DNA from: an uncultured bacterium
GTDB taxonomy: Bacteria; Acidobacteriota; DATKUA01
Length of the DNA stretch: 64,000 nt
Assembly: GCA_965602675.1 (NCBI GenBank)
Contig: CBFCZO010000004.1
Coordinates: 6,512-70,511 of the forward strand
Direction of reading: 5' to 3'
In this document: piece after piece, positions 2,297 through 35,927 of the stretch
Layout: every line of letters starts with the position of its first letter
Position numbering within the stretch: position 1 is the first letter of the stretch
Translations under genes and position numbers: made by a program
Notes under the pieces: model-generated
The model's input: only the letters and a program-made list of their open reading frames with translations
Databases searched by the model: none
What the model was told of the DNA's origin: nothing

Positions 2297-2351
2297 CGTC
2301 TCGTCACGCCCCGCCGCGTTAAACGGAGCAAAACCGGAAGGAGCCGAATAG

Positions 2352-3488
2352 ATGAGCACGGAGATGTCGCTGCACTCGCTGCTCAAGACAATGATCGAGC
2401 AGAGGGCAAGCGACCTGCATATCACCACTGGCAGTCCACCGCAGATTCGCATCGACGGGCGCTTGGTTCCAATCAACACGCCCGCGCTGAAACCGACGGA
2501 CACTAAACACATCGCCTACTCGGTCCTCACCGAAGCTCAGAAGCACCGCTTGGAGGAAGGCCTCCAGATCGACTTCAGCTTCGGAATCAAGGGGCTCGCC
2601 CGTTTCCGCGCAAACGTATATACGCAGCGAGGTTCGATCGCAGCGGCGTACAGGTTGATTCCATGGGAAATCATGGATTTCGGTAAGCTCGGAGTGCCGC
2701 AGGTCGTCTCGAACCTCTGCGACAGGCCGCGCGGCCTGGTGCTCGTCACCGGCCCCACCGGCAGCGGAAAAAGCACGACTCTCGCGGCGATGATCGACAA
2801 AATCAACCGCGAAAAGCCGTTCCATATACTCACGATCGAGGACCCGATCGAATACATCCACTCCCACAAGCGCTGCCTCGTCAACCAGCGCGAGCTGCAC
2901 GCCGACACCCACTCCTTTGCCGATTCCCTCCGTGCCGTCCTGCGCCAGGATCCCGACGTGGTGCTCGTGGGCGAGATGCGCGACCTCGAGACGATGGAGG
3001 CCGCCCTGACCATCGCCGAAACCGGCCACCTCACCTTCGCCACCCTACACACCAACTCCGCCGCACAGTCGATCAACCGCATGGTCGATGCCTTCCCGGC
3101 GCATCAGCAGAGCCAGGTTCGCGCCCAGCTCAGCTTTGTGCTCGAAGGAATCCTCTGCCAGTCCCTGCTCCCGCGACAGGGCGGCTCCGGCCGCGTGCTG
3201 GCGATGGAAATACTTATCCCTAACTCAGCGATAAGAAATCTCATCCGCGAAGACAAGATCCACCAGATCTATGCGATGATGCAAACCGGCCAGTCGAAAC
3301 ACGGCATGCAGACCTACAACCAGAGCCTGGCCACCCTCTATCTGAAAAAGAAAATAAGCCTGCAGACCGCAATGGCGGCCAGTTCCAACCCGGACGAGCT
3401 GGAACAGCTCATCAGCCGTGGTTCCGGAGTCCTCGAGGAGGCCGGTGGAACCAGACCGGTGGGCGCGGCCAGGGGTCAGGGAGGATAA
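2352..3488 (+). CDS. pilT: Twitching-motility retraction ATPase PilT.
   Basis: Classic PilT N-terminus (LLKTMIEQRASDLHITTGSPPQIRIDG), Walker A GPTGSGKST and the AIRNLIRE motif. AAGGAG RBS upstream. C-terminus carries about 30 extra Gly/Ala-rich residues versus canonical PilT of about 345 aa. Confidence 0.93.
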   Translation: MSTEMSLHSLLKTMIEQRASDLHITTGSPPQIRIDGRLVPINTPALKPTDTKHIAYSVLTEAQKHRLEEGLQIDFSFGIKGLARFRANVYTQRGSIAAAYRLIPWEIMDFGKLGVPQVVSNLCDRPRGLVLVTGPTGSGKSTTLAAMIDKINREKPFHILTIEDPIEYIHSHKRCLVNQRELHADTHSFADSLRAVLRQDPDVVLVGEMRDLETMEAALTIAETGHLTFATLHTNSAAQSINRMVDAFPAHQQSQVRAQLSFVLEGILCQSLLPRQGGSGRVLAMEILIPNSAIRNLIREDKIHQIYAMMQTGQSKHGMQTYNQSLATLYLKKKISLQTAMAASSNPDELEQLISRGSGVLEEAGGTRPVGAARGQGG

Positions 3489-3497
3489 AGACAAGCC

Positions 3498-4700
3498 ATG
3501 CCGACCTATACCTACGTGGGACGCAGCAGAGGCGGTAAGCTGCACCGGGGCGAGCTGCTGGCTGCCAGCAAGAACGAAGCGATCGCCGCGCTGCGCAAGC
3601 AGCAGATTCTGGTGACCGTTGTCAAAGAAAAGGGCAAGGGAGAAGGCCGCCTCTTCGGCCGCGGAAAGGTCAAGCAGAAAGACATTGCCGTCGTCACTCG
3701 GCAGCTCAGCTTCATGATCGACGCCGGCCTGCCGCTCAACCAGGCCCTGGAGATCATCGGCACACAGGTCGAAAACAAAGCCCTGCAGAAGACGATGTTC
3801 GAGGTCCGCCAGGCGATCGAGGGAGGCTCGAGCTTCTCCGATGCCCTCGCAGAACACCCCCACGTCTTCAACGAGCTCTACACCAACATGGTGGCGGCGG
3901 GGGAGGCAGGCGGCATCCTCGACACGATTCTCGAACGCCTCTCCATCTACATCGAAAAAGCCGTCAAGCTCAAGCGCGCCGTCAAGAGCGCGATGATCTA
4001 CCCCATCAGCGTCATGGCCATCGCCATCGGAGTGGTGATCGTCATCCTCTGGCAGGTCATCCCGACATTCGCAAAGCTCTTCACAGGCCTCGGAAAGGCT
4101 TTGCCCATGCCGACGCAGATCACCATCGACCTCTCCAACTTCGTCGGCAATTACATCCTCTTCATCTTCGGCGGCATCGTCGCCCTCGTCATCGCCCTCA
4201 GATGGTACCACTCCACACCGGGCGGCAAGCTGGCAATCGACAGCCTCATGCTGCGATTGCCCGTGATCGGCATCGTCCTGCGAAAGATCGCTATCGCGCG
4301 CTTCTGCCGCACGCTCGGAACCTTGATCAGCAGCGGTGTGCCGATCCTCGACAGCCTCGACATCACGGCCAAGACCGCGGGCAACAGGGTGATCGAGAAC
4401 GCCGTGATGGAAGCCCGCAACAGCGTCGAGGCAGGAAAAACCCTCAGCGAGCCGCTGCGCGACTCCGAGGTCTTCACCCCGATGGTCGTGCAAATGGTCA
4501 ACGTCGGCGAGCAGACCGGCGAGCTCGACGCGATGGTCAACAAGGTGGCTGAATTCTACGAGGAAGAAGTCGACGCGGCGGTGCAGGACCTGCTCTCGCT
4601 GCTGGAGCCGCTGATCATCATCTTCCTGGGAGTTACTATCGGTTGGATCGTCGTCTCCATGTACATGCCCATCTTCGCGCTGCTCGGAGAGCTAACCTGA
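3498..4700 (+). CDS. pilC: Type IV pilus inner-membrane platform protein PilC (GspF family).
   Basis: Two GspF repeats with 3 TM segments. N-terminus MPTYTYVGRSRGGKLHRGEL is typical of PilC. Position is immediately after pilB-pilT. Confidence 0.92.
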   Translation: MPTYTYVGRSRGGKLHRGELLAASKNEAIAALRKQQILVTVVKEKGKGEGRLFGRGKVKQKDIAVVTRQLSFMIDAGLPLNQALEIIGTQVENKALQKTMFEVRQAIEGGSSFSDALAEHPHVFNELYTNMVAAGEAGGILDTILERLSIYIEKAVKLKRAVKSAMIYPISVMAIAIGVVIVILWQVIPTFAKLFTGLGKALPMPTQITIDLSNFVGNYILFIFGGIVALVIALRWYHSTPGGKLAIDSLMLRLPVIGIVLRKIAIARFCRTLGTLISSGVPILDSLDITAKTAGNRVIENAVMEARNSVEAGKTLSEPLRDSEVFTPMVVQMVNVGEQTGELDAMVNKVAEFYEEEVDAAVQDLLSLLEPLIIIFLGVTIGWIVVSMYMPIFALLGELT

Positions 4701-4728
4701 GGCCCCCAGAGGACGAGGGGGACGAAAT

Positions 4729-6426
4729 ATGGCCTCAAACCACCCGGCGCCGGCGGGTGACGGCGGCGAGCCCGCCGAGGATGTGGCCGGCACGCTGAGG
4801 CTGATTCTTATCCTGCGCGTCGTGATCGTCACGGCGCTGCTCGGTTCCGCCCTCTATGTCCAGATCTTCTACGGCCTCACCAGCGACTCCCTCTACTTCA
4901 TCATCGGGCTGACATATCTGCTGACCGTCTTCTATGCCGTCCTCGCCATACCATTCCGCTCAAACAGGATCTTCGCCCTCAGCCAATTGCTCCTGGACGT
5001 GGCGCTGGTCTCCTTGCTCGTACTCGTCACAGGCGGCGTCGACAGCGCTTTCATCATTCTCTACTACCTGCTGGTCGTCAGCGGGGCGATTGTGCTCGGT
5101 CGCATCAGCAGCTTCGCCATTGCCACCGTCTCGGTGGTGCTGCTGGCGGGCGTCGTGATGATATCCAACGGCGGCTTCATCGATCTACACGTCCTGTATC
5201 CTTACGCGCGCCCGGCGATGAACACGCTGCTCTACACGCTCGCGCTGCACTCCTTCGCGCTCGAGCTGCTGGCCGCCCTCAGCGGCTACCTCGCCGGCAT
5301 GCTGCAGACCACCGCAGCGCGCCTGCGCCTGCGCACGGCCGACCTCGCCCGTCTGCGAGTACTCAACGAAAGCATCGTCCGCAGCAACCCAAGCGGAATC
5401 ATTACAACCGACATGGACGGCCGGATCACCTTCGCCAATCCCGCCGCACTCGACCTGCTCAAGCGGCCGCTGGACACGATAAGCGGGCGGGACGTTCGCA
5501 ATCTGCTGCTCTACAACCCCTACGCGCCCGCGCCGATCCTCAGCGACGAGGGCTGGCACAGGGAAATGCTGCTCCACTGCAGCGATGAAGAGAAAATCGA
5601 TGTGGGTGTCAGCCGCACCCTGCTAATCGATTCCGAAGGCATGCTGGTCGGCAAGCTCTACACAATCGACGATCTCCGCGAGCTCAAGGCCTTGCAGGCG
5701 CGCCTGCGGCTGCAGGACAGGATGGCCGCAGCCGGCGAGCTGAGCGCGGCGATCGCCCACGAGATCCGCAACCCCCTCGGCTCCATCAGCGGCAGCGCGC
5801 AGATGATCCGCAAGGCTCCCGATCTCTCGGAGGATCAGCTCTACTTCATGGATATCATCATCCGCGAGAGCCAGCGGCTGAGCATGATTCTCAATGACTT
5901 CCTCGCCTTCACCCGCGCGCCGGTCTTCTCCCCGGTTGAAATCGACATCCTGAGGATAGCACGGGAGACGGTCGACCTGCTCGCCAACAGCACCGAGGTC
6001 ACCCCTGACCACCGCATCGAACTGCAGAGCGGAGAGCTCGACAGGCTCGTGGCTCGAGTCGACGCCAACATGCTTCGCCAGCTAATCTATAACCTGGCAA
6101 GCAACGGCGTGCGGGCGATGCCCGAAGGTGGTAAGCTGATCGTCACCCTGAGCCGCGACGGCGGCGATGCCGTCCTCAGGTTCGCCGACGAGGGCCACGG
6201 CATCCAACCGGATCGCCTGCAGAAGCTCTTTCAACCCTTTGTCTCGGGATCCAAGGGCGGCATTGGGCTCGGAATGGGGATCGTCTATAGAATCGTCCAG
6301 GAACACGGCGGCAGCATAACTGTCAGAAGCAAGCCGAATGCCGGCACCAGCGTAACGGTAGCGCTCCCCGTCGGCGGCGGCGACTCTTCAGCTTTCAGCG
6401 TCCAGGTGGAAACAGCGGAGCCGTAA
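4729..6426 (+). CDS. pilS: Sensor histidine kinase PilS-like: polytopic membrane N-terminus, PAS, HisKA, HATPase_c.
   Basis: About 6 predicted TM helices. PAS-like segment (SNPSGIITTDMDGRITFANPAAL), H-box AHEIRNPLGSISGSAQM, and N/G1/G2 boxes (NGVRAMPEGG, GIGLGMGIV). The stop overlaps the pilR start. Confidence 0.8.
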   Translation: MASNHPAPAGDGGEPAEDVAGTLRLILILRVVIVTALLGSALYVQIFYGLTSDSLYFIIGLTYLLTVFYAVLAIPFRSNRIFALSQLLLDVALVSLLVLVTGGVDSAFIILYYLLVVSGAIVLGRISSFAIATVSVVLLAGVVMISNGGFIDLHVLYPYARPAMNTLLYTLALHSFALELLAALSGYLAGMLQTTAARLRLRTADLARLRVLNESIVRSNPSGIITTDMDGRITFANPAALDLLKRPLDTISGRDVRNLLLYNPYAPAPILSDEGWHREMLLHCSDEEKIDVGVSRTLLIDSEGMLVGKLYTIDDLRELKALQARLRLQDRMAAAGELSAAIAHEIRNPLGSISGSAQMIRKAPDLSEDQLYFMDIIIRESQRLSMILNDFLAFTRAPVFSPVEIDILRIARETVDLLANSTEVTPDHRIELQSGELDRLVARVDANMLRQLIYNLASNGVRAMPEGGKLIVTLSRDGGDAVLRFADEGHGIQPDRLQKLFQPFVSGSKGGIGLGMGIVYRIVQEHGGSITVRSKPNAGTSVTVALPVGGGDSSAFSVQVETAEP

Positions 6427-6427
6427 G

Positions 6428-7795
<1,368 letters not shown>

Positions 7796-15623: not shown

Positions 15624-16631
15624 CTATCGCTTCGCGCCCTGCGCCTGGATCGCGGTCATCGCTACCGTGAAGACGATGTCCTCGGCGGTGCAGCCGCGGC
15701 TGAGGTCGTTGGAGGGTTTCGCAAGGCCCTGAAGCACCGGGCCGAAGGCGTTGCCGCCCGTCAGCCTCTCGGTGATCTTGTAGGCGATGTTGCCGGCGTC
15801 GAGGTTGGGAAAGACCATCGTGTTGGCCTGGCCCCTGATGACGTCGTTATCCTTGCACTTGCGCGCGCAGATGTCCGGGATCACCGCCGTGTCGAACTGC
15901 ACCTCGCCGTCGACGCGTAGCTTCGGGGCGCGCTCGCGCACGATGGCGGTCGCTTCCCGCACCTTGTCGATCAGCGGATGCTCGGCGCTGCCCCTGGTGC
16001 TGAAACTCAGCATCGCAACCACCGGCTCGGTTTCCAGGAACAGGCGGCAGCTATCGGCGCCGCACAGGGCTATCTCCGCGAGTTGCGGCGCGGTGGGATC
16101 GGGCATCACCGCCCCGTCGGTGTAGACGAAAGCGCCGTTGTGGCCGAATTCCTTCTTGGGAATCACCATCAGGAAGAAGCTGCTTACGACGCTGAATCCC
16201 GGCTTCAGACCGATGATTTGGATGGCGGCGCGCACGGTGGCAGCAGTGGTGTTCTGGGCGCCGGCCACCGACCCGCCGGCGTCGCCGTTGCGCACCATCG
16301 CGGCGCCGAAAAAGAGCGGATCGGAAGCAATCTTTCTCGCCTCGTCCAGCGTTATGCCCTTGTGCTTGCGCGCTTCGTACACTATCGGCGCGTAACGGTC
16401 GAGCATCGCGGCATCGGTTGGATCGACTATCTCGACGCCGCCTAAATCTGCCCCGCTATTCTTCGCTAATTCGGCCACGGAATCACGGTTTCCCAATACT
16501 ATCGGCGCCGCTATGCCTCTCGCTTTGAGAGCAGCGGCCGCGGTCAGTGTCCGCTCATCATCGCCCTCCGGCAACACTATTGGCTGCATGTCGGCGCAGG
16601 CGCGTTCGATAATTCTCTCTTTTATATCCAT
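15624..16631 (-). CDS. pta: Phosphate acetyltransferase / phosphate butyryltransferase family protein.
   Basis: 335 aa. PTA_PTB fold motifs ([42 protein letters not shown]). No adjacent acetate kinase. Confidence 0.8.
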
Positions 16632-16829
16632 TTCCGGCTCACCGTTGTGAGTTGATTTATAAATAAGGTATAAACAATGTTACGTCGCGGTCAAGCAACA
16701 GCAATCCATTCTTAATCATAGCCCAGGCACTGTCAATAGTTCCTGCAGGAACGATTTGTCAGCCAGGGTGAGCATTGACGCCTGGATCATGCGGGGAGAT
16801 ACTGTGCCGTCAGAACACACGGGAAACAA

Positions 16830-17840
16830 ATGCCTTCGTTAGCTAAGATCTGGCGGGAAGGATTCCGTCGCATCGGTTGCGGCAGGAGATGCCGGGAGAT
16901 CAACTCGGGCATCGAACACCTGCAGAAAGAGCGCCCAAAGCTGCTGATCTCGTTAGCCAAAACTGCCTGGGAAACCGGCGCATTCGGCACGGACTTCAGT
17001 ACCTCCGCAGCGGATCTGTTGAAGACTGGTCACGACCTGAAAACGCTCAAAGAATCGCTTGAAGCCAGCCGTAAGGCTACGGAAGAGCTGGATGCCGAGT
17101 TCGCCCGGGCCGACGGCGAATCCTCAATCCGGATCCGGGATGCCGCGCAACCTTTTCGTGAAGCGAAGGGAGCTTACGACAGGCTGAACAAACAGCTTGA
17201 AGGGCTGGAGTACGAAAAGACGCGCCTCGAGCACGCTCTCCCTCTCCTGCACGAAAGCTCCGAAAAGCTCGAAGCCAGGATCGCCGAGATCGAGACCTCG
17301 AGTTCGACGGACGGAAGGCTGGCGCGATTGCGCAGCGACCTTAAAAGACGCCGGCGCGATGCCATCGACTCCGAAAGCCGCATGAAGCAGATCGAAGAGG
17401 TGGAATTGCCTGCAATCCGGCCGGAGGTGGAATCGGTCGCCCGCTCAACCGAGGCATTGAGGAGCAAACTGGAAGAGTTGGAAACGGAAGAATCAACGCA
17501 TACATCCAGCCTGAAGGAAAAGCTCGATGAGGCGCGCCGGAGAAAGAATGCTCAGGAACGGGAGGCGCGGGCGCTCGAGGATTCGATCCTGCCTCTGCTT
17601 TTTCAGTTGGGCGAAGAGCTTAACGGCAGGCGCGTGGAACACGAAGCGTTGAGCGAACACTACAACAATCTTGACGCGCAGTTGGAGGAGTTGAAAAAGC
17701 TGCACACAGCGCTCGGGATCGCAAAGGCCGACCTTAACGAACTGGATACCGCCGCAGTACGATTCTTCTGGGGCCTGGCGATCGGCGCAGGTGCTTTGCT
17801 GATGGTGGTTGTGATTATCACGGTTGCCTTTCTAACCTGA
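16830..17840 (+). CDS. Tail-anchored coiled-coil protein (336 aa): long heptad-rich region with a single C-terminal TM helix.
   Basis: E/R/K/L-rich sequence with strong coiled-coil periodicity. The terminal hydrophobic segment is FFWGLAIGAGALLMVVVIITVAFLT. No known domain. Confidence 0.6.
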   Translation: MPSLAKIWREGFRRIGCGRRCREINSGIEHLQKERPKLLISLAKTAWETGAFGTDFSTSAADLLKTGHDLKTLKESLEASRKATEELDAEFARADGESSIRIRDAAQPFREAKGAYDRLNKQLEGLEYEKTRLEHALPLLHESSEKLEARIAEIETSSSTDGRLARLRSDLKRRRRDAIDSESRMKQIEEVELPAIRPEVESVARSTEALRSKLEELETEESTHTSSLKEKLDEARRRKNAQEREARALEDSILPLLFQLGEELNGRRVEHEALSEHYNNLDAQLEELKKLHTALGIAKADLNELDTAAVRFFWGLAIGAGALLMVVVIITVAFLT

Positions 17841-17870
17841 TAGCTGCAACCGGGCAGACGGGATAAGGCG

Positions 17871-18896
17871 ATGCCGCAGATGCATGACATCTTCAGGGAC
17901 GGAGCGGAATTCATCCGGCGCAACTTCAGGCGGACGATCCTCACAGCCCGCCTGAGCGACGAACGTCAGAGGCTGGAGAGGTTCCTCAGCGATCTGGGCC
18001 GCAAGGCGTGGGAGCTTGGCATTTCAACGTGCGAATCCGTTCCCACGGGCAAGGAACTGGGAAAGATACAGAAAAAAATCGACAAGCTGGAACAGCGGAC
18101 GGACTCCGACACGGGGAACCTGGACGCGCAGATCAGGGAAATCGAGGGCAAGGCACTCGAGGAGGAAAAGCGCTTTCGCGACATCGACACCCGTCGCGAA
18201 GGCGCAATCGGCCAGAAAACTCAGCGGGCGAAAACCATATCGGAGATCAGAAAGAAGCTACAGGAACTCGCTGACAAGCGGGAGCGCCTGAAAGATGATT
18301 TGAAGTTCTGCTCCGACAAACACCGCCAGCTCGAATCGAACGGCCCCAAGGCATCCGGCGCGGGGGAGAGCGCCGCCGAGCTGCTGGCTACGGAAGAAGC
18401 GCTGAATAATCAGTCGAAGGAGGTCGCCGGGCAGATCAAGGCCCTGCAGAACAGGTTGCGATACAACGAGCGGGCGATGTCTCCCCTTGAGCAGACCATC
18501 GCTGCAATCCTGGAGGATCTCGAGGCAAGCCGGGCACAACGCCGGCTGCTCCAGGACCAAATGAAAGAGTTACGTGCCAGGCTTCACGAGCTTCGCAACA
18601 ATGCCGCACACCAGAGAAATCCTCTGCTCAAAGAACGCCGGGCGCTTTATGGCGGCCTCGGAATAGAATTACTGAGCAATCGCTCCGATGAGCCCGAACT
18701 GGGACCGCTGTTCAGCGCGGCAGACCTGTCGGTGTCCACAGTGAGAGGTCTTGAGAAAGACATCGAGGCCGAAAAGCAGCTCATCGGACTGCTCGATCAG
18801 ACTGCGGTAACCATGTTCATCGGTATTCTTTTCGGAGCCGGATTGTTGATGTTCATGGTGTTTGCGCTGATAATTACTTTAATCCTCGTTTTGTGA
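17871..18896 (+). CDS. Paralogous tail-anchored coiled-coil protein (341 aa).
   Basis: Same architecture as 16830-17840 (N-terminal ...LGRKAWELG..., coiled coil, C-terminal TM FIGILFGAGLLMFMVFALIITLILVL). The two genes are 31 nt apart. Confidence 0.6.
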   Translation: MPQMHDIFRDGAEFIRRNFRRTILTARLSDERQRLERFLSDLGRKAWELGISTCESVPTGKELGKIQKKIDKLEQRTDSDTGNLDAQIREIEGKALEEEKRFRDIDTRREGAIGQKTQRAKTISEIRKKLQELADKRERLKDDLKFCSDKHRQLESNGPKASGAGESAAELLATEEALNNQSKEVAGQIKALQNRLRYNERAMSPLEQTIAAILEDLEASRAQRRLLQDQMKELRARLHELRNNAAHQRNPLLKERRALYGGLGIELLSNRSDEPELGPLFSAADLSVSTVRGLEKDIEAEKQLIGLLDQTAVTMFIGILFGAGLLMFMVFALIITLILVL

Positions 18897-19102
18897 ATGG
18901 AGGGAATGCTTTGCGGCGGGATCTGCTTATGGTCGTCTCGGACAATGGGATATATCACTCCCGCTCGGTTTTTACCCGGATAGTGCCAAACCTCACCGAA
19001 AAAAATACGGTTACGAGTATTAATTCCTTTAGATTGAAAATGTTGCCGCTTCATAGTACCATTAATCGATCTTCGGGAGCCGGCTAAAACAAAGGATCTG
19101 CC

Positions 19103-19603
19103 ATGCCCGCCCTCGACCTTTTTCTGTATGAGGAAGATCACATCGCGCTCAAGCAGGCAGTGGAGCGACTCTGCCGCGAGAGCGAGGCAAAAGCGGTCTT
19201 CCTCATCGACAAAAACGGTCAGCAGCTCATGGCCGCCGGGGACTACGGCGACATAGACACCGTCTCGCTGGCGACGCTGGCTGCGGGCAACGTCGCGGCG
19301 ACCGACGGCCTGGCAAGGCTGCTCGGCGAACAGGGCTTCACTATTCTTTTCCACGAGGGCGAGCGGGATAACATACACATTTCGATCGTCGGAGACCTGG
19401 CTATTCTTGTTGTTATCTTCGACGATAGGACCTCGGTAGGGCTCGTGCGCCTGCGCGTGAAGCGCTCTACCGACGCCCTGGAAAGCGTGCTGGTGCAGGC
19501 TGTGAAGCGCCAGCAGGCCGTCAAGGAGCAGGCGGGCGAGGCGGAGAAAAAATCCGACTTGCAGGAAATCACGGATGAAGAGATAGAGAACCTCTTCAGA
19601 TGA
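19103..19603 (+). CDS. mglB: MglB, the roadblock/LC7 GTPase-activating protein for MglA.
   Basis: Closely alignable to the Myxococcus xanthus MglB sequence as recalled from memory (KAVFLIDKNGQQL, DTVSLATLAAGNVAA, VLVVIFDDRTSVGLVRLRVK, acidic tail ending DEEIENLF). Confidence 0.9.
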   Translation: MPALDLFLYEEDHIALKQAVERLCRESEAKAVFLIDKNGQQLMAAGDYGDIDTVSLATLAAGNVAATDGLARLLGEQGFTILFHEGERDNIHISIVGDLAILVVIFDDRTSVGLVRLRVKRSTDALESVLVQAVKRQQAVKEQAGEAEKKSDLQEITDEEIENLFR

Positions 19604-19652
19604 GCGGGGCGTTAACATTCGCCGATGAGATGGCGGGGGGATCGCAGGGCAA

Positions 19653-20243
19653 GTGACTTACGTTAATTATTCCGCGAGGGAGATCAACGTCAAGATCGTT
19701 TATTACGGTCCCGGACTCGGCGGCAAGACCACCAACCTGCAGTTCATCTACAACAGCTCGGGCGCGAAGCAGCAGGGAAAGCTGATCAGCCTGGCCACCG
19801 AGACCGACAGGACGCTTTTCTTCGACTTCATGCCCCTCGATCTGGGAAACATCCGCGGCTTCCGCACCCGCCTCCATCTCTACACCGTCCCGGGGCAGGT
19901 CTTCTACAACGCCAGCCGCAAGCTGATCCTCAAGGGCGTTGACGGCATCGTGCAGGTGGCCGACAGCCAGGTCGAGCGACTCGACGCGAACATCGAGAGT
20001 ATAAACAACCTGCAGGACAACCTGCGCGAGCACGGCTACGACCTGGAGACCATCCCCTACGTTCTGCAGCTCAATAAGCGGGATCTCAAGAATGTCGTCT
20101 CGAGCGAGGAACTCGCCAAGACACTTCATGTCAAAAACGAACCGGTTTTGGAAGCCGTCGCCACCGAAGGCAAGGGAGTGTTTCAGAGCCTCAAGGCCGT
20201 CTCGAAATTGATCCTCATCGACCTGCGACAGAGGCTTGTCTGA
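19653..20243 (+). CDS. mglA: MglA, Ras-like small GTPase.
   Basis: GTG start. EINVKIVYYGPGLGGKTTNL P-loop, LISLATETDRTLFFDF switch region, HLYTVPGQVFY and LQLNKRDL. Roughly 70% identity by eye to the M. xanthus MglA sequence as recalled from memory. Confidence 0.95.
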   Translation: MTYVNYSAREINVKIVYYGPGLGGKTTNLQFIYNSSGAKQQGKLISLATETDRTLFFDFMPLDLGNIRGFRTRLHLYTVPGQVFYNASRKLILKGVDGIVQVADSQVERLDANIESINNLQDNLREHGYDLETIPYVLQLNKRDLKNVVSSEELAKTLHVKNEPVLEAVATEGKGVFQSLKAVSKLILIDLRQRLV

Positions 20244-20254
20244 TCCCCGCCCCG

Positions 20255-20572
20255 CTATTTTGACTTCAGACTCGCTACGTACTTCTTCTTCAGCCGGTAG
20301 ACGAATACCAGCAGCTCGGCTACCACCTCGTAGAGGGCGGGATCGATCTCTTCGCCAAGATCCATCTTCGAAAGGATCGACACAAGATCGGCGTCCTCGG
20401 TGATCGGGATGTCGTGCTCCTTGGCCAGGGCGATGATCTTCTCGGCTATTCTCCCCTCGCCCTTGGCTATCAGGCGGGGCGCGCCGTCTTTCTCGGGGGT
20501 GAAGCGCAGTGCGGCCGCCCTCAGGCGTTCCCTCTCTCCCCGCTTTCGCTTGCCCTTATCCGCCATCGTCAC
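20255..20572 (-). CDS. Stand-alone FlhB C-terminal domain paralog (FlhB_C / YlqH-like, EscU/YscU/HrcU family).
   Basis: 105 aa. Central APRLIAKGEGRIAEKIIALAKEHDIPITEDADLV matches the conserved FlhB cytoplasmic domain around the NPTH region, but here lacks the autocleavage NPTH. Its start overlaps the stop of the upstream FliK-like gene. Confidence 0.8.
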   Translation of the reverse strand: MTMADKGKRKRGERERLRAAALRFTPEKDGAPRLIAKGEGRIAEKIIALAKEHDIPITEDADLVSILSKMDLGEEIDPALYEVVAELLVFVYRLKKKYVASLKSK

Positions 20573-22015: not shown

Positions 22016-22423
22016 TCAGCTTTTGGCGCTGAACCTCTCCAGGTCGAGGATCAGCTCCACTTCCCCGCAGGGAATATTAAGGTCGCGCGCAATCGTATCC
22101 GCGCTCAGCCCTTGGCGGGCCAGAAACAAAATATCTTCCTTCACTTTCTGCGGATCGAGGCGCACCCCGCCGTCCTTGGCGCGTTCTCGCGTGGTCTCGC
22201 GATCGGTCGTGGCGCTCAGCCTCTCGGAAAGCACGCGCTGGCGGTGGGCGAGCCCGTGAAACTGCTCCAGCACCCTGCGCTGCGCCGCGCCGATCTGCTC
22301 CAGCTCGTGTAAAAGACCCTCCTGGCGCTCCGACAGCGAGCGAACGCGCCACAACAGCGCCAGCGCCAGCGCGGCGGAACCCGCCGCCAGTATCATGGAG
22401 ATTACAATCAGGAAGATCTGCAT
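22016..22423 (-). CDS. Small N-terminally membrane-anchored protein with a coiled coil and a C-terminal HTH-like motif (135 aa).
   Basis: TM IFLIVISMILAAGSAALALALLW, then a helical region, then LSADTIARDLNIPCGEVELIL. Embedded in the flagellar operon. Confidence 0.4.
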   Translation of the reverse strand: MQIFLIVISMILAAGSAALALALLWRVRSLSERQEGLLHELEQIGAAQRRVLEQFHGLAHRQRVLSERLSATTDRETTRERAKDGGVRLDPQKVKEDILFLARQGLSADTIARDLNIPCGEVELILDLERFSAKS

Positions 22424-22433
22424 TTAGAACCGA

Positions 22434-23327
22434 TCAGCTGGCAAACATCGCATTGACGAAGCTTTCCACCTTCTCAACCTCCTCGTCGAGAGAAGCGGAA
22501 AAGCGATCGAAATCGAGGGTCTCCAGGAGATGGTTGTGCTCGCTCAGCTTCTGCCAGGCTTCGTCGGAGCGCATCTCGACAACCACCTCCGGCTCACCGC
22601 TGATTCCGATACCATGCTTGCGGCAGAGCAATGCCGCCAGCCGCACAACACACGTCACCTCGCCGTACTCGGTGGCCTGCCTGGGATTCTCGTTGAAGGC
22701 GATTACCTCCTCGAGCAGGCGCGGCAGACGCCAGCGCACTGCTAGGCGCTGACCGACATCCGTGTGAGTAAAACCCAAAACCTCTTCCTCCGCCTCGCTT
22801 AGAGGTATCCCCCGCTCGTGCGCATTGTGGATCGCCTCCTCGAAGAGCAGAGGACGGTAACTCGCCAGGACTATCTTGCCGATGTCGTGCACCAGCCCCG
22901 CCAGAAAGGCTTCCTGGTAGAATTGGTAATCGAGCAGGGAGGAGAGAGTGCGGCTGATGTTGCCCGTGGCCACGGAGAACTGCCAGAAACCCTCGAAGGG
23001 GAAGCGCTCGATCTTGGAGTGCCGCCCGAAGGCGGTGATGATCGACGTCCCATAAACAAGATTCTTGGTTGCATCCAGACCAAGCACCACGATCGCCTGC
23101 CGGATCGAGTTTATCTCGCGGAAGAAGGAATAATACGCGGAGTTGACGATGCGCAGCAGCCGGGTGGAGATCACCGGGTCGGTGGAAATCGCCTCCTCGA
23201 CCTTGGCGATCGAGATGTTGGGGTCGCTGGTAAGCTCGATGATCTTCTTGATCACCTCGGGCAGCGTGGAAAGGTCCCGCACCCCCCTGATGAACTTGTC
23301 GACCTTCTTGAGGCGTTCCTCTTCCAT
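22434..23327 (-). CDS. HDOD domain protein.
   Basis: LSTLPEVIKKIIELTSDPNISIAKVEEAISTDPVISTRLLRIVNSAYY and later HDIGKIVL (degenerate HD motif), typical of HDOD. Confidence 0.85.
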   Translation of the reverse strand: MEEERLKKVDKFIRGVRDLSTLPEVIKKIIELTSDPNISIAKVEEAISTDPVISTRLLRIVNSAYYSFFREINSIRQAIVVLGLDATKNLVYGTSIITAFGRHSKIERFPFEGFWQFSVATGNISRTLSSLLDYQFYQEAFLAGLVHDIGKIVLASYRPLLFEEAIHNAHERGIPLSEAEEEVLGFTHTDVGQRLAVRWRLPRLLEEVIAFNENPRQATEYGEVTCVVRLAALLCRKHGIGISGEPEVVVEMRSDEAWQKLSEHNHLLETLDFDRFSASLDEEVEKVESFVNAMFAS

Positions 23328-23354: not shown

Positions 23355-24206
23355 TCAGAATTCGAAAATATCCCTGTCCTCATCCAACAGGTCCGAGACG
23401 TACTGAACCATCTCATCCAGCTTGTCCCCGCCAAGCTCCAGAATCTCGACAGCCTCCGTCTCTTTCAGTTCCTGGGCCGGCCTCCTTATCGGACCGATAC
23501 CCAGCTTATTGGACATAGCGTTGGCGAAAGACACCACCGCCGTGAGGTACTGGTTGTGCTCGGCGTAAAAAGGCGTGTGGTGATGCAGCACAGCCTCTTC
23601 AAGCTCCGGAGAGAAATTCCATTTGTGCAGCACCAACGCCCCCACCTGTGTGTGGTCGAAGCCGAGGACTTCCTGCTCGTACGGAATGAAGTCGCTACCT
23701 GTATTATAGACCTCTTCGATGATGGTCTGGTATTGCTGACTGAAATTCACGTTGAGAACACTCTTGCCGAGGTCATGCAGCAGCGCGGCGATAAAAGCCT
23801 TCTCAACGTCTGCCACGCCCAGTATCTCCGCGCTCCTGCGGGCGATCACTGCGCTCGCGAGCGAATGCTCCCACAACAGCTTGGTGCTGAACATCTGCGT
23901 GCTCGGCCCCCTGGAGTAGATCGACTTCGACGACGCCGCCAGCACTATCGACCTGATCGTCGAGAATCCCAGAATCACGATGGCATGGGAAAGCGTTGTG
24001 ATGTCGCGGGAGACCCCGAACATGGCGGAGTTGGCAATCTTCAGCACCTTCACTGTGAGAGCCTGGTCGCGCGAGATCATATCCTGCAGCTGGTTCGCAG
24101 ACGTCGAGGGGTCACCGATCATGCCCATGATCCTGACCGCGACAATCGGCATCGCGGGCAAATCGCCCACGCGCGCAATCAGCGTTTCCAGCTCGTCCTG
24201 GCTCAT
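23355..24206 (-). CDS. HDOD domain protein, second tandem copy.
   Basis: LPAMPIVAVRIMGMIGDPSTSANQLQDMISRDQALTVKVLKIANSAMFG and LHDLGKSVL. Paralogous to 22434-23327. Confidence 0.85.
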   Translation of the reverse strand: MSQDELETLIARVGDLPAMPIVAVRIMGMIGDPSTSANQLQDMISRDQALTVKVLKIANSAMFGVSRDITTLSHAIVILGFSTIRSIVLAASSKSIYSRGPSTQMFSTKLLWEHSLASAVIARRSAEILGVADVEKAFIAALLHDLGKSVLNVNFSQQYQTIIEEVYNTGSDFIPYEQEVLGFDHTQVGALVLHKWNFSPELEEAVLHHHTPFYAEHNQYLTAVVSFANAMSNKLGIGPIRRPAQELKETEAVEILELGGDKLDEMVQYVSDLLDEDRDIFEF

Positions 24207-27917: not shown

Positions 27918-29132
27918 TCAGGCCGATCCCAGAAGCATTCTGGCCAGCTTGGTTGGGTTGGCGGCCTCGATGTCGTCGGGCACGTTCTGGCCCGTGGTGA
28001 AGTAGGCTATCGGTAGCTTGGTCCGCACCGTCTCGTTGACCACCGGCCCGTACGTCGTCGTCTCATCGAGCTTGGTGAATAACAGCTTTTTAGGGCCGAT
28101 AGGGCAGAAGCGGTCGGTGATCTCACACAGATCCCGGTTCTTCGTGGTCGCCGAAAGCACAAGCATTACCTCGACCTCGGGATCGTCGGCAAAGTAAGAC
28201 TTGAGGTCCTTTACCTGCTCGTCGTCCGCCTGGCTGCGGCCGGCCGTGTCGATCAGGATGAGCGATGCGTCGTGGTTGTCGGCGATCGCCTTGCGCATCT
28301 CCTCGGGGCTGTAACTGACAAACAGCGGTATGTTCATGATGCGCGCGTAAGTCTTGAGCTGCTCGACCGCGGCGATCCTGTATGTATCGATGGTAATCAG
28401 GCACACCTTTCGCTTCATCTGAAGGCTGCAGCGGGCGGCGAGCTTGGCGATGGTGGTTGTCTTGCCCACCCCGGTCGGACCGATGAAGGCAAGCACCGAG
28501 GGGCGGCCGCCGTTGAGGGCGATCGGCTTGCCGGCTGGCATGACGTCAGTAATTAGCCCCACCAGGCGCTCCCGGGCAAGGGATATATCTGCCCGCTCCT
28601 CCTCCTGCAGAAGGCCGTTCAACGCCTCAATCAGGTTGTAGCTGATGCTCTCCTCCAGTTCGTTGCCCACCAGGTCGCGGTAAAGGTGCAGCAGGGTCTC
28701 GTCGAAATCAAGTTCCTCGGTCAGGCCCGCGCGGCGAGAGAGCACGTTGAACATACGCTTCAGATCGCGCATCTCCTCGCGCAGCGGTTCGATGTCGGAG
28801 CTCACATGGTTGCGGCGCATCTCGTCGACAAGCGAACGGATGGCAAACAACTCCTGCTTCAAAGGCTCGATGCTCTGGCTGAGAAGCATCCGGTTCTTGA
28901 CGATCTGTTCCTCGATATCGCCGGCGGTGTAAGCCCTCTCCGCCTTCTCCGTCCTCTCGGCCCTCTTCACTGGTGGGGCATCGTCGGCGGCGGCGGTGAC
29001 CTCCACGAACCGGCGCCCCAACCGGCCGCTCATCTCCCGGGTGGATATTATCAAAGCGTTCTCACCCATCTCGCGGCGAATCTGCGCCAACGCATCCTTG
29101 ATCGTCGAAGCCGTATACTTCTTTACCCGCAT
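27918..29132 (-). CDS. flhF: Flagellar SRP-like GTPase FlhF.
   Basis: N-terminal B-domain, then NG domain with GPTGVGKTTTIAKLAA, DTAGR and TKLDET motifs. Confidence 0.9.
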   Translation of the reverse strand: MRVKKYTASTIKDALAQIRREMGENALIISTREMSGRLGRRFVEVTAAADDAPPVKRAERTEKAERAYTAGDIEEQIVKNRMLLSQSIEPLKQELFAIRSLVDEMRRNHVSSDIEPLREEMRDLKRMFNVLSRRAGLTEELDFDETLLHLYRDLVGNELEESISYNLIEALNGLLQEEERADISLARERLVGLITDVMPAGKPIALNGGRPSVLAFIGPTGVGKTTTIAKLAARCSLQMKRKVCLITIDTYRIAAVEQLKTYARIMNIPLFVSYSPEEMRKAIADNHDASLILIDTAGRSQADDEQVKDLKSYFADDPEVEVMLVLSATTKNRDLCEITDRFCPIGPKKLLFTKLDETTTYGPVVNETVRTKLPIAYFTTGQNVPDDIEAANPTKLARMLLGSA

Positions 29133-29278: not shown

Positions 29279-30355
29279 TCATGCGGGGACCTTGTTGCGA
29301 AGTTTGTAGACGTAGGCCAGCACCTCTGCGACCGCCTTGTAGAGATCGGGCGGGACAAGATCGCCGACCTCGCAGGTGCGGTAAAGGGCTTGAGCCAAAG
29401 CCTGATTCTCGACCAGAGGAACCTTGTTCTCCTCCGCGATTTCCCTGATGCGCTCAGCCAGATGACCCCTTCCCCTGGCGATCACCTCTGGGGCAGGCTT
29501 TGCCTCAGCATTGTAGGCCAGCGCCACAGCAAAGTGAGTCGGATTGGTTATCACAACGTCGGCGCGAGGAACCTCGGCCATCATCCGGCGGCGAGCCATC
29601 TGGTACTGGAGGGTCCTGATCCGGCGCTTGATCATCGGATCACCCTCGGTCATCTTCATCTCGTCCTTCACCTCCCGGCGCGTCATCTTGAGGTCCTTTG
29701 AGAAGCGGTGTTGCGTCCAGGCGAGATCTATTATCGCCACGATGATGAACAGCAACAGGATCTTGAACAACGCCGCGAAGATGAAATTGGCCGCATACTC
29801 GACAGCCTGCGGCAACGGCGCCATCATCAACCCCGGAAGGTGCGGAAGCTCCGCCATCAGCGTATCCCACGTCATCCAAACGACTATCAGAACGATCAGC
29901 AGCGTACGCAGGAAATTAACCGCGGCCGATGGGCTCATCAGCATCCGCTTCAGGCCCTCGACCGGATTGAACTTGTTGGGCTTGAACTCGAACGGCTTGA
30001 AAGATATATTCCAGCCGCCCTGCATCCACGTCGAGGCGAATATCGAGGTGATGAGCAAGGCCAGAAACAGCGGCCCCACTATCAACGCCAGGCTTCCGGC
30101 TATTTCCCAGAATAGCGTCGTTACCGAGGCTTCAGAGATCTGAGTCGTGCCGGCCGCGGCCAGCAGCCTCGAGGCGAGCCTGCCCAGCGCAACTGTTCCC
30201 AGCCCGCCAAACAGAAAAATAATCAGCAGCGCAACGGCGAAGGTCATGATGTTGGGAAATTCCCTGCTGCGCGGCAGCTTGCCCTCTTCCCGAGATTTCC
30301 GCCTCTTGCGAGGAGTCGCGGGTATCGTCTTTTCGGCTTTGTCTTCAGTGCCCAA
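29279..30355 (-). CDS. flhB: Flagellar type III export protein FlhB.
   Basis: 358 aa. N-terminal EDKAEKTIPATPRKRRKSREEGKLPRSREF, 4 TM helices, and a C-terminal domain with the NPTHFAVAL autocleavage site. Confidence 0.92.
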   Translation of the reverse strand: MGTEDKAEKTIPATPRKRRKSREEGKLPRSREFPNIMTFAVALLIIFLFGGLGTVALGRLASRLLAAAGTTQISEASVTTLFWEIAGSLALIVGPLFLALLITSIFASTWMQGGWNISFKPFEFKPNKFNPVEGLKRMLMSPSAAVNFLRTLLIVLIVVWMTWDTLMAELPHLPGLMMAPLPQAVEYAANFIFAALFKILLLFIIVAIIDLAWTQHRFSKDLKMTRREVKDEMKMTEGDPMIKRRIRTLQYQMARRRMMAEVPRADVVITNPTHFAVALAYNAEAKPAPEVIARGRGHLAERIREIAEENKVPLVENQALAQALYRTCEVGDLVPPDLYKAVAEVLAYVYKLRNKVPA

Positions 30356-33617: not shown

Positions 33618-34379
33618 TCATTGTATAACATTTGAAAAGATCGACGCATCCGGCGGCTCCAAGAATACTCGCACGCGCCTGTTCGCTGCCTGGTTTTCCG
33701 GCGTGTCGTTCGGAACCTTGGGCCGGGTCGAACCGTAACCGGCTACCATAAACCTCTCCGGCGGAAGCCAGGCACCCCGCTCTTCCGTTTCCGACAAAAG
33801 GAAATCAAGCACGGCCACTGCTCGCCGTGCGCTGAGTATATAGGCATCGCGCGGCGGAAGCGAGTTATCGGTGTGACCTTCGATAATCACGCGCCTGTCA
33901 GACACCTCCAGCACTCTCGCCAGGAAATTCCTCAACAGCTCGAGGAACTCACCGGACTCGGCAGTCAACTCGGCGCTCCCCTCCCGGAAGAGTACCTTCT
34001 CGGCCAGAACTATCGAGATCGCGCCATCGGGGGAGTCCTCGACGTAAAACTCGACCGCGTCGGCCACGCTGCCCGAACCCAGGCCTTCCTCAACGCTGCT
34101 CGATAAGTCGACCAGTGCCGCTCGCGTAGGGTTCTTCGCGACCTCGGGAAGGGGATCGAAAACGAAATCGCTGGAGTGAACCATGTCACCTTCCATCATC
34201 AGGCCGAGTTCATCGCCCGAGAACGAGCGGAAGAACTCCTGGAAGCGCTCGCTGGAGATGCTCGACATCGAGAATAGCAGCACGAAGAAGGTGAGCAGCA
34301 GCGTGCACATGTCGGAGAAGGTCACCATCCAGTTGCCTGACGGTGCTCCTTCTTCCTTAATTATGACTCTACGCGCCAC
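33618..34379 (-). CDS. MotB-type stator subunit, second copy (MotB'), with OmpA-like peptidoglycan-binding domain.
   Basis: N-terminal plug/TM WMVTFSDMCTLLLTFFVLLFSM and C-terminal OmpA-like IIEGHTDNSLPP...LSARRAVAVLDFL. Confidence 0.8.
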   Translation of the reverse strand: MARRVIIKEEGAPSGNWMVTFSDMCTLLLTFFVLLFSMSSISSERFQEFFRSFSGDELGLMMEGDMVHSSDFVFDPLPEVAKNPTRAALVDLSSSVEEGLGSGSVADAVEFYVEDSPDGAISIVLAEKVLFREGSAELTAESGEFLELLRNFLARVLEVSDRRVIIEGHTDNSLPPRDAYILSARRAVAVLDFLLSETEERGAWLPPERFMVAGYGSTRPKVPNDTPENQAANRRVRVFLEPPDASIFSNVIQ

Positions 34380-34382
34380 CCC

Positions 34383-35159
34383 TCACCTCATCTCGCCCGA
34401 GCGGTCGAGCCGCGGGTGCTTAATTATCACTTCCACGCGCCGGTTGAGCGTCATGTTTTCGGGTGTGTCGTTTGCGACCAAAGGACGGTACTCCCCGGCG
34501 CCGCTGGCAGACAGTCTGCCCATGCTGACTCCTCGAGAATTCAGATATCTGAGCACGCTCATCGCGCGCGCCTGCGAGAGCTCCCAGTTGTTGAGCCACG
34601 TTCCCCCGGCCGGGAGCTGGCTGGTGTCGCTGTGACCCTCGATTGCAAGCTCGTTGCGAAAGGGCCCGACTATCGCCACCAGGCGGTCGAGAAAACGTTG
34701 GCCCTGAGGCGTGAGCTGGTCATCTCCGGAAGCAAAAGAAAGCTCTTCACCCAGGGTCACGACCAATCCGCGAGGCGTAACAACGATCCCGATGTTACCC
34801 TCCAGCCCCACCTGGCGCGCATAGCGCTGAAGGGCGAGAAACTCCTCGTAATGTGACGTTACGACCTCGTACAGTAGCTCGTCACCCGGCTTGGACGCCT
34901 CTGCGGTCAGGTCCTGACCCGTGCTTCCCGACTCGAAGACGCTGAACATTCTCGCAGCCTTCTCGAAGATGCCCACGAACTCCAGCTGCACCGAGGTAAG
35001 CGCCATTTTAACCCGCTCCACGTCGAAGCTCGAATAGGCAGTCAGCAGGATGAAGAAAGCCAGGATAATGATTGAGAGGCTGGTGAAAAGAGAGACATGA
35101 ACGGGCAGCTTCGGGCGCTGCTTGATGATAATCGGCTTCGATTCGTTGTTTCCAACCAT
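34383..35159 (-). CDS. motB: MotB stator subunit (OmpA-like C-terminal domain).
   Basis: TM LFTSLSIIILAFFILLTAY and OmpA_C motif LAIEGHSDT...NWELSQARAMSVLRYL. Immediately follows motA. Confidence 0.8.
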   Translation of the reverse strand: MVGNNESKPIIIKQRPKLPVHVSLFTSLSIIILAFFILLTAYSSFDVERVKMALTSVQLEFVGIFEKAARMFSVFESGSTGQDLTAEASKPGDELLYEVVTSHYEEFLALQRYARQVGLEGNIGIVVTPRGLVVTLGEELSFASGDDQLTPQGQRFLDRLVAIVGPFRNELAIEGHSDTSQLPAGGTWLNNWELSQARAMSVLRYLNSRGVSMGRLSASGAGEYRPLVANDTPENMTLNRRVEVIIKHPRLDRSGEMR

Positions 35160-35165
35160 GGCTCG

Positions 35166-35927
35166 TTAGAACTGCGACGCTCTCTCCCCAGGCGGTAGGA
35201 AGGTGTTAAGTTTCTGCTCCACAATGCGCGGTACGTCCCCGCTCTGGATCGAGAGGACACCCGCCATCGTCATCTCCTTGAAGAGCAACTCCTCGCTGGA
35301 TCGCTTCTTAAGCTTCTCGGCCAGCGGCAGGAACACGAGGTTGGCAAGCAGCGCGCCATAAAAAGTTGTCACCAGCGCGATAGACATTTTAGGGCCGATG
35401 GAGGAGGGATCGTCGAGGCTCTGCAGCATGAAGATCAGGCCGATAAGCGTGCCGATCATACCGAACGCGGGGGAGAAGTTCCCCATCGCCTCCAGAATGC
35501 CCGAGCCGATGCGATGCCGCTCGCCCACCTTCTCCAGCTCCGTCTCCATAATCTGACGCGTCAGCTCCGGCTCCGTGCCGTCGACAACCAGCTGGATCCC
35601 CTGATGCATGAACGGATCCGAGGCCTCGCCTGCAACGTTCTCCAGGGCCAGCACTCCGTCGCGGCGCGCCACCCTGGCGAACTCGACCATCCGCGGAACC
35701 AGCTCCTTTAACGTCTCAGCCTTGTGGAAGAATGCCTTGCTCAAGGCTGATATCAACTTCTGGACATCAGCCACGGGAAATGCAACCAGGGTGGCGCCGA
35801 AGGTTCCGCCCATGACGATCATCATTGATATCGGATCGATGAAAAAACCGAGACCATTGCCGAGTATGATTGAACCGAGCACCAGACCGAAGCCGACCAG
35901 AAAGCCGAGGATGGTTGAAATATCCAT
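35166..35927 (-). CDS. motA: MotA/PomA stator proton-channel subunit.
   Basis: 253 aa, 4 TM, MotA_ExbB motifs (GMIGTLIGLIFML, ALVTTFYGALLANLVFLPLAEKL). Confidence 0.9.
   Translation of the reverse strand: MDISTILGFLVGFGLVLGSIILGNGLGFFIDPISMMIVMGGTFGATLVAFPVADVQKLISALSKAFFHKAETLKELVPRMVEFARVARRDGVLALENVAGEASDPFMHQGIQLVVDGTEPELTRQIMETELEKVGERHRIGSGILEAMGNFSPAFGMIGTLIGLIFMLQSLDDPSSIGPKMSIALVTTFYGALLANLVFLPLAEKLKKRSSEELLFKEMTMAGVLSIQSGDVPRIVEQKLNTFLPPGERASQF

Follow-up and report, generated by a model that had tools for sequence, protein, structure and literature searches.

The 64,000-nucleotide (nt) stretch of DNA from an uncultured bacterium that was analysed here (the window) contains an mglB-mglA gene pair, encoding the GTPase-activating protein and the Ras-like GTPase of the MglA/MglB polarity switch, and this pair is directly preceded by two genes for membrane-anchored coiled-coil proteins, here called CC1 and CC2. 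A CC gene together with mglB-mglA forms a conserved block in one uncultured clade, CC1 and CC2 belong to an unannotated family of inner-membrane proteins and go back to a recent duplication, and the known MglA/MglB module carries here a lineage-specific, previously undescribed candidate component. With gene order as the basis, the two proteins are candidate partners of the switch, and it is a plausible, still tentative proposal that MglA/MglB has in them a membrane-anchored scaffold or adaptor.

An earlier note on this DNA had described four same-strand genes running up to mglA, and all four are indeed found as + strand open reading frames (ORFs):

16830-17840, + strand: CC1, ORF of 336 amino acids (aa), tail-anchored protein with a predicted coiled-coil hairpin, the faster-diverging paralog
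17763-17837, + strand: C-terminal transmembrane helix of CC1, residues ~312-336 (Kyte-Doolittle maximum 2.74 at residues 316-335)
17871-18896, + strand: CC2, ORF of 341 aa, tail-anchored protein with a predicted coiled-coil hairpin, nearer to the single-copy ancestral form
18798-18893, + strand: C-terminal transmembrane helix of CC2, residues ~310-341 (Kyte-Doolittle maximum 2.98 at 323-341; AlphaFold helix 310-340)
19103-19603, + strand: mglB, 166 aa, Roadblock/LC7 GTPase-activating protein with a C-terminal helix
19653-20243, + strand: mglA, 196 aa, GTG start, Ras-like GTPase

The gaps between CC1 and CC2 (30 nt, 17841-17870) and between CC2 and mglB (206 nt, 18897-19102) are as small as the note had claimed, which gave them as 31 and 207 nt, and a gap of 49 nt separates mglB from mglA.

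The mglB-mglA pair

On sequence grounds, the gene pair that adjoins the flagellar genes is a genuine mglB-mglA, as the earlier note had stated. MglA shares 68% identity with its M. xanthus counterpart over 193 aa, and it matches the PDB entries of M. xanthus MglA (6hjh; E 3.4e-86, residues 1-193) and of Thermus MglA (3t12; E 2.9e-72). The alignment retains the P-loop GPGLGGKT, R53 (TETDRT), LYTVPGQ and NKRD, so that the features by which Group 1 Ras-like GTPases of the MglA type are recognized are all present, i.e. GxxxxGKT, the Arg R53, a Thr replacing the Asp in TxxGQ, the catalytic Gln and NKxD. The roles of these residues are well established for M. xanthus and Thermus MglA. A cognate mglB directly upstream, another feature of this group, is likewise found, with mglB ending at 19603 and mglA starting at 19653. 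MglB is recognized by Pfam Robl_LC7 (E 1e-14, 54 bits at a cut-off of 23) and matches M. xanthus MglB over its full length (6h5b; E 8.4e-41, residues 5-165), including the C-terminal helix, where its end ...EITDEEIENLF aligns with ...EISDDDIDNLF. The NCBIfam MglB model NF052242 reaches 82 bits on this protein, which is under its cut-off of 200.

CC1 and CC2 are paralogous tail-anchored proteins

Judged from pairwise and profile comparisons, CC1 and CC2 are true paralogs, in agreement with the earlier note. BLASTP aligns them colinearly over their full length with 21% identity (E 2e-9), and a comparison of their ortholog-group profiles by hhalign gives 98.3% probability (E 2.4e-14, 310 columns). 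Hydrophobic 19-residue segments with Kyte-Doolittle values >1.6 occur solely at ~308-336 in CC1 and ~304-341 in CC2 (segment starts 308-318 and 304-323, respectively), no other part of either protein exceeds 1.6, and 0-2 residues follow beyond. The proteins thus show the pattern of tail-anchored proteins, with one transmembrane helix in the last ~30 residues, no signal and no other hydrophobic segment, an assignment made by hydropathy only, and by the same measure this pattern holds in all orthologs of CC1 and CC2. In CC1, the transmembrane helix is preceded by an LDxxAVxxFW motif that is conserved in alignment A1. With a single C-terminal transmembrane helix, nearly the whole of each protein would lie on the cytoplasmic side, and the proteins are rich in charged residues (~34%).

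AlphaFold models of both proteins are all-helical and of good confidence. For CC1 (predicted local distance difference test score, pLDDT, 84; 6 sequences), helices are predicted at 58-156 and 164-335, and for CC2 (pLDDT 92.3; 17 sequences) at 4-49, 58-156, 164-269, 275-306 and 310-340, which amounts to an N-terminal helix, two helices of ~100 residues that are connected by a loop at ~157-163, a short helix and the membrane helix. The coiled coil is therewith predicted to be an intramolecular antiparallel hairpin with arms of ~100 residues each at ~58-156 and ~164-269. The earlier claim of a coiled coil that ends in a C-terminal tail anchor agrees with these models, but the continuous rod that had been imagined is replaced by a predicted hairpin. 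Relative to the 67%-identical ortholog of locus L001, the ratio of non-synonymous to synonymous substitution rates (dN/dS) is 0.24 for CC1 and 0.30 for CC2, as compared to 0.01 for mglA and 0.15 for the fliK-like gene downstream, which indicates that CC1 and CC2 are real genes under a purifying selection that is relaxed in comparison to their neighbours. CC1 orthologs share 39-99% identity.

Scans of CC1 and CC2 against Pfam and NCBIfam assigned no family, and the sub-threshold matches (SMC, Rad50, tropomyosin, DUF1664) were noise. The family profile matched only myosin, tropomyosin and SMC rods among PDB sequences. The earlier note had considered that a known unrelated domain, such as a fragment of an SMC protein or of a methyl-accepting chemotaxis protein (MCP), might be hidden in these sequences, and all that appeared was coiled-coil noise far below the family cut-offs. 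As to SMC/Rad50, only the coiled-coil arms align (27-29 bits at cut-offs of 567-1087), and proteins of 336 and 341 aa leave no space for ABC ATPase heads; the JGI label “chromosome segregation ATPase” on relatives is an artefact of this coiled-coil arm similarity. MCPsignal gave no match at E<=1, and the matches to MCP hairpins in structural and PDB profile searches are generic. A membership in the FipA (DUF2802) family is rejected, as neither protein matches DUF2802 and the anchor is C-terminal, and the ZnR-linker-GYF type of GltJ is rejected as well, as there is neither a CxxC...CxxC motif nor a GYF match.

A CC gene precedes mglB throughout one uncultured clade

Relatives of CC1 and CC2 are difficult to retrieve by word-indexed homolog searches, which returned 5 relatives of CC1, 2 of CC2 and 3 in a further search, because coiled-coil words saturate the candidate list. 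The loci of these close relatives all read CC (337 aa), CC (341 aa), mglB (166 aa), mglA (196 aa). A metagenome scan with alignment A5 gave 3 loci, and when a joint CC1/CC2 profile was run by HMMER in full against 1.84 billion representatives, 256 matches were obtained at E<=1e-3, 58 of which reach E<=1e-10. In 9 out of 9 informative lineages (the window, L001, L004, L005, L008, L009, L090, L095, L096), a single or duplicated CC gene lies directly upstream of mglB; the short contigs of P0013, P0015 and P0022 carry no mgl genes and are uninformative in this respect. The synteny that the earlier note had suggested to check is therefore real, but it is confined to one narrow clade, whose nearest named relatives are metagenome-assembled genomes (MAGs) labelled Acidobacteriota and not the Desulfuromonadales that the note had in mind. 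The only species-representative genome of the clade, L009, has the CC pair with mglBA, and its upstream genes encode a peptidase M28 and a nucleotidyl transferase, without pta. Four lineages have a single-copy CC gene:

L008: CC (P0021, 343 aa), mglB, mglA
L095: TM_HPP, CC (P0019, 342 aa), mglB, mglA; gap ~90 nt
L096: pta, CC (P0108, 302 aa), mglB, mglA; gap ~75 nt
L090: CC (P0023, 328 aa), followed by the first 43 codons of mglB, the contig showing the mglB start only

Across the nine lineages, CC identity falls to ~20-29%, with pta at ~66% and MglA at 76-82%. The upstream neighbour of CC changes at least three times, being pta, the peptidase M28 gene (L009), TM_HPP (L095) or a + strand gene (L005), and a break between CC and mglB was not seen in any of the nine. 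As the more distant relatives have a single CC gene, the pair arose by a recent duplication and does not represent a conserved two-component design, and as the single-copy proteins are nearer to CC2-type copies (22-35% identity) than to CC1-type copies (15-20%), CC1 is the derived copy.

The CC family at large

CC1 and CC2 contain all family motifs (alignments A1 and A4), which are an N-terminal I[F/W/L]xxGxE..RR, LGxxAW, LGxEL..R, and LLDxxAV..F followed by the transmembrane helix. Conservation is concentrated in two parts of the protein, namely the first ~50 residues (MPxxxDI[F/W]xxGxE..RR, LGxxAW) and the membrane-proximal residues ~260-320 (LGxEL..R.DEPEL, DL, LLDxxAV..F, followed by the membrane helix). 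The column identities of 0.43 (residues 1-20) and 0.42 (residues 261-280) contrast with 0.17-0.27 in the hairpin, which evolves fast and varies in sequence and length across the family (proteins of 302-343 aa).

From the 256-match scan, 146 newly retrieved proteins were listed (P0008-P0153). A tail helix is present in 81 of these 146, and in 71 of the 81 it is preceded by a D/N..A/V....F motif. As to overall architecture, 56 of the listed proteins have the tail anchor only, 25 have added N-terminal membrane helices, 22 have the CC domain and membrane helix continued by a long C-terminal extension, and 35 have an N-terminal anchor only. The N-terminally anchored group (P0038, P0055, P0056, P0061 and ~30 others; ~330-348 aa) covers profile positions ~12-297, carries a GLPYW motif and has no tail anchor; these proteins may be topologically inverted relatives, a different family or coiled-coil false positives. 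Eleven distant tail-anchored members (P0065, P0081, P0089, P0097, P0099, P0105, P0107, P0112, P0119, P0128, P0142), none of them in the window, have an N-terminal CxxC...CxxC Zn-ribbon and a proline-rich linker in front of the CC domain and the tail anchor; it is the zinc-ribbon of M. xanthus GltJ that binds MglB (PMC11135422). No Pfam model covers the ten wider-family members that were scanned, and with 256 representative clusters and several architectures, the family merits a definition whatever its link to MglA may be.

Promoter-like elements of the block

Consensus scans and direct reading of the intergenic regions point to three elements:

16739-16752, strand not assigned: perfect 14-bp palindrome GTTCCTGCAGGAAC in the pta/CC1 intergenic region, read from the sequence
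16775-16803, + strand: candidate CC1-CC2 promoter, sigma-70-like, TTGACG, 17 nt, GATACT (consensus scan)
19034-19062, + strand: candidate mglBA promoter, sigma-70-like, TTGAAA, 17 nt, TACCAT (consensus scan), inside the CC2-mglB gap

The hexamers of the candidate CC1 promoter are kept in 6 of the 7 aligned loci (alignment A7), including L009 with its different upstream gene, the exception being L008, where a degenerate GTGCCG stands in the place of the -35 box and the -10 box reads TAGACT. The palindrome lies ~25 bp upstream of the -35 box within a ~28-bp block, CTGTCAATnGTnCCTGCAGGAACGATTT, that is conserved in the window, L001, L004, L005 and L007 and partly in L008 (A7), and it is likely a binding site for a regulator. 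In the CC2-mglB gap, the block AGATTGAAAA...CTTCATAGTAnnATTAAT (TTGAAA-17-TAnnAT) is kept in the window, L001, L004 and L005, the remainder of the 206 nt being unconserved (alignment A6), and the TTGAAA box is also found in L008 and L009. An RNA element in this gap was considered and rejected, as the gap has no Rfam match at E<=1 and no stable fold (z-score +1.0), and a promoter-like box is favoured.

A possible scaffold or adaptor for MglA/MglB

How could CC proteins serve as a scaffold or adaptor for the switch? They would tether MglA-GTP and/or MglB to the cytoplasmic membrane, probably in a polar position. The working surface that binds MglA-GTP and/or MglB would probably be formed by the conserved membrane-proximal segments, the variable hairpin might be a spacer or an oligomerisation rod, and after the duplication CC1 and CC2 would probably act as a hetero-oligomer. 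What speaks for such a function is that the CC-mglB junction remained unbroken despite the divergence of the CC proteins, their duplication and the changes of the upstream genes. Coiled-coil proteins that are associated with MglA are known from M. xanthus, namely AglZ and FrzS. These two are cited in PMC4316618 and PMC9811614, and the M. xanthus membrane protein GltJ binds MglA-GTP via its linker and MglB via its Zn-ribbon (PMC11135422).

It is also conceivable, if somewhat unlikely, that the CC genes owe their place beside mglBA to descent only, and that they encode a general-purpose membrane-anchored coiled-coil protein, e.g. for envelope, division or membrane organisation. Such an explanation agrees with the conservation, in the same loci, of the downstream flhB-like, fliK-like, DUF2802, HDOD, fliM/N, fliA and flhG genes, with the different neighbours that mglBA has outside the clade, and with the finding that CC and mglBA each have their own conserved promoter-like element. 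It would also suit the only wider-family locus that is readable, L097, which lies in the unrelated context described below. Yet at least three rearrangements took place on the upstream side of CC while the CC-mglB junction was never broken, this junction outlasted a CC divergence to ~20-25% identity as well as one gene duplication, and the genes remain on the same strand throughout, with short gaps in several relatives (~75 nt in L096, ~90 nt in L095).

Several observations weigh against the proposed scaffold or adaptor function. The syntenic evidence consists of gene order only, comes from uncultured organisms and is confined to one narrow clade with named relatives labelled Acidobacteriota, which limits its significance. 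The best 80 mglA loci, taken from one genome per GTDB species and 56-81% identical, span Acidobacteriota, Thermoanaerobaculia, Myxococcota, WOR-3, Nitrospirota, Thermus and others; in 79 of these 80, the CC profile found no CC-family gene within 10 kb, the remaining one being L009, and a profile-free check of the same 80 loci for a charged tail-anchored ORF directly upstream of mglB/mglA also returned L009 only. Other phyla have other genes upstream of mglBA, e.g. recR or holA, and the neighbourhoods of Group 1 MglA genes have been described to “vary widely”, with PATAN-domain genes only occasionally nearby (Wuichet & Sogaard-Andersen 2014, PMC4316618). L097 (P0025, with extra N-terminal membrane helices) lies between Memo/PriA and a Bmp ABC transporter with no mgl genes nearby, from which it follows that the CC fold is not MglA-specific. 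The degree of conservation of the mglA/flagellar junction equals that of the CC-mglB junction. All loci that reach beyond mglA share the convergent flhB-like gene, and the genomes therefore form one clade with conserved local order, so that inherited gene order in a clade that keeps flagellar genes downstream explains part of the synteny signal. Due to the conserved promoter-like element in the CC2-mglB gap, transcription of mglBA can probably proceed independently of the CC genes. Finally, fold searches with the CC models found generic helical hairpins only.

A bolder version of the scaffold or adaptor proposal would be that CC1 and CC2 form a membrane-tethered heterodimer that binds MglA directly, either in the manner of an effector or in place of RomR/RomX as an exchange factor, thereby fixing the active GTPase at one pole and coupling the switch to the decision which pole is used for the flagellum and which for the type IV pili. 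This is a speculative model that we consider improbable; if it were true, the heterodimer would be a bacterial counterpart of the eukaryotic tail-anchored golgins or of coiled-coil Rab exchange factors.

Among the mglA loci, a separate conserved neighbourhood was noticed, in which recR or holA (DNA polymerase III delta) recurrently precedes mglBA, in MAGs of Krumholzibacteriota and Latescibacterota type and in some Acidobacteria (L041 8853-9452; L034 8440-9402; L026 8486-9436).

The flagellar and type IV pilus genes

On the other side of the block, a flagellar cluster begins 11 nt past the mglA stop on the minus strand and is thus convergent with mglA. The gene that adjoins mglA, here and in every other locus reaching that far (L001, L004, L008, L009, L095, L096), is the last gene of the cluster:

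20255-20572, - strand: FlhB C-terminal-domain protein, 105 aa (Pfam Bac_export_2, 1.6e-17, profile positions 262-335 only)

It is followed by genes for a fliK-like protein, a DUF2802 (FipA-like) protein, two HDOD proteins, fliN/Y, fliM, fliA, flhG, flhF, flhB, fliR, motB-type proteins and motA, so that the cell encodes an FlhF/FlhG/FipA-type flagellum in addition to type IV pilus genes. The latter (pilB, pilT, pilC, a PAS histidine kinase and a sigma-54 response regulator; 557-7795, + strand) lie ~9 kb upstream of the block, from which they are separated by genes for a Na/H exchanger, SIR2, carA and carB and then the divergent pta at 15624-16631, and they are hence not contiguous with it. The earlier note had placed the block between type IV pilus and flagellar genes; the flagellar cluster does adjoin it, on the opposite strand, but the pilus genes do not, and the suggested module for coordinating the two machines has this loose proximity as its sole basis. 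The remainder of the window contains housekeeping genes.

The vicinity of the flagellar cluster raises the possibility that the CC proteins are flagellar accessory factors, which are tied to this cluster and not to MglA and which act either as a polar landmark or as a regulator of the export switch, like the tail-anchored flagellar regulator Flk of Salmonella. In all loci of sufficient length, the block borders directly on the flagellar cluster, and FlhF, FlhG and a FipA-like (DUF2802) protein are among the products of this cluster, indicating that membrane and coiled-coil factors regulate where the flagellum is placed. Against such a role, the CC genes are on the strand opposite to the flagellar operon with mglB and mglA intervening, their candidate promoter is sigma-70-like and not sigma-28- or sigma-54-like, and neither protein resembles a flagellar family at E<=1 in Pfam or NCBIfam. 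Flk itself gave no match to CC1 or CC2 at E<=1 in these libraries, which may or may not contain a Flk model, and its likeness to the CC proteins is one of architecture and size only. A flagellar accessory role appears unlikely, and a scaffold or adaptor for MglA/MglB remains the function that we favour.

Several details of the surrounding genes were recorded. The 105-aa FlhB C-terminal-domain gene overlaps the fliK-like gene by 4 nt, and a full-length flhB lies 9 kb further (29279-30355, - strand); flhA was found neither between flhB and flhF (27918-29132) nor evidently elsewhere in the window. The gene at 22016-22423 (- strand) encodes a protein of 135 aa with an N-terminal membrane helix and FipA architecture, it has the fliK-like gene on one side and two HDOD genes on the other, and its ortholog in L001 matches DUF6115 and faintly DUF2802. 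The two adjacent HDOD genes (22434-23327 and 23355-24206, both - strand) lie between this FipA-like gene and fliN/fliM, and the HDOD pair is kept in L001, L008 and L096, with one HDOD gene only in L095. After motA (35166-35927), there are two OmpA-domain genes (34383-35159 and 33618-34379, both - strand), only the second of which encodes a MotB plug, and they may be alternative stator B subunits. On the type IV pilus side, no pilin gene follows the sigma-54 regulator, the next gene being that of the Na/H exchanger on the opposite strand.

Comparison with known systems

MglA/MglB is the best-studied bacterial Ras-like polarity switch, and to our knowledge almost everything that is known about it comes from non-flagellated Myxococcus, plus Bdellovibrio and Thermus. 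The gene pair of the window has the same mglB-mglA order as that of M. xanthus, with the motifs, the Roadblock domain and the C-terminal helix retained, but it differs by the one or two tail-anchored coiled-coil genes that precede it in this clade and by the flagellar cluster that follows, M. xanthus having no flagellum. With AglZ and FrzS, the CC proteins share the long coiled coils, which in AglZ and FrzS work with MglA-GTP at poles or focal adhesions, whereas AglZ and FrzS are soluble proteins with N-terminal pseudo-receiver domains and without a membrane anchor, and no sequence similarity to CC1 or CC2 was detected in Pfam, NCBIfam and PDB profile searches. The architecture of a cytoplasmic coiled coil on a C-terminal membrane helix is also that of tail-anchored golgins, such as golgin-84/GOLGA5 and giantin, which bind small Ras-like GTPases, and SH3BP5 is a coiled-coil exchange factor of Rab11. 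SH3BP5 was among the Foldseek matches to the CC proteins, with an E-value of 4e-3 and a TM-score of 0.27-0.43 that is at the level of any helical hairpin, and Pfam Golgin_A5 gave E 0.5, far below its cut-off; the resemblance is an architectural analogy only.

A membrane-bound partner of MglA is GltJ, a component of the gliding machine that also has a periplasmic part. Similar to what is proposed for the CC proteins, it is anchored in the membrane and engages the MglA/MglB switch through a large N-terminal region on the cytoplasmic side (PMC11135422). It differs in its ZnR, linker and GYF domains, none of which is present in CC1 or CC2, which end in the membrane. The earlier note had held membrane-tethered coiled-coil partners of MglA to be undescribed; our literature search found no paper that links MglA to a tail-anchored protein, but with GltJ, membrane-bound partners are already known in principle (PMC11135422). 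None of the papers that were retrieved describes mglBA beside a flagellar cluster or links MglA to such a cluster.

A related solution exists for another polar GTPase. FipA (DUF2802) is a small, recently described membrane-anchored coiled-coil partner of FlhF in the placement of the polar flagellum (PMC11620751). Like the CC proteins, it is membrane-anchored with a cytoplasmic coiled region and is encoded at the edge of a flagellar operon, and it positions a GTPase at the pole (PMC11620751). In contrast to the CC proteins with their C-terminal anchor, far longer hairpin and lack of DUF2802, FipA has an N-terminal anchor, the DUF2802 domain and an SRP-type GTPase as partner. The FipA-like gene of the window (22016-22423) is 1.8 kb away from the CC-mglBA block, and the position of this block at the edge of an FlhF/FlhG/FipA-type cluster suggests a possible link of MglA/MglB to the polar flagellum. 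The unannotated, fast-evolving, membrane-anchored coiled-coil family described here offers a concrete candidate for an accessory component of the MglA/MglB switch.

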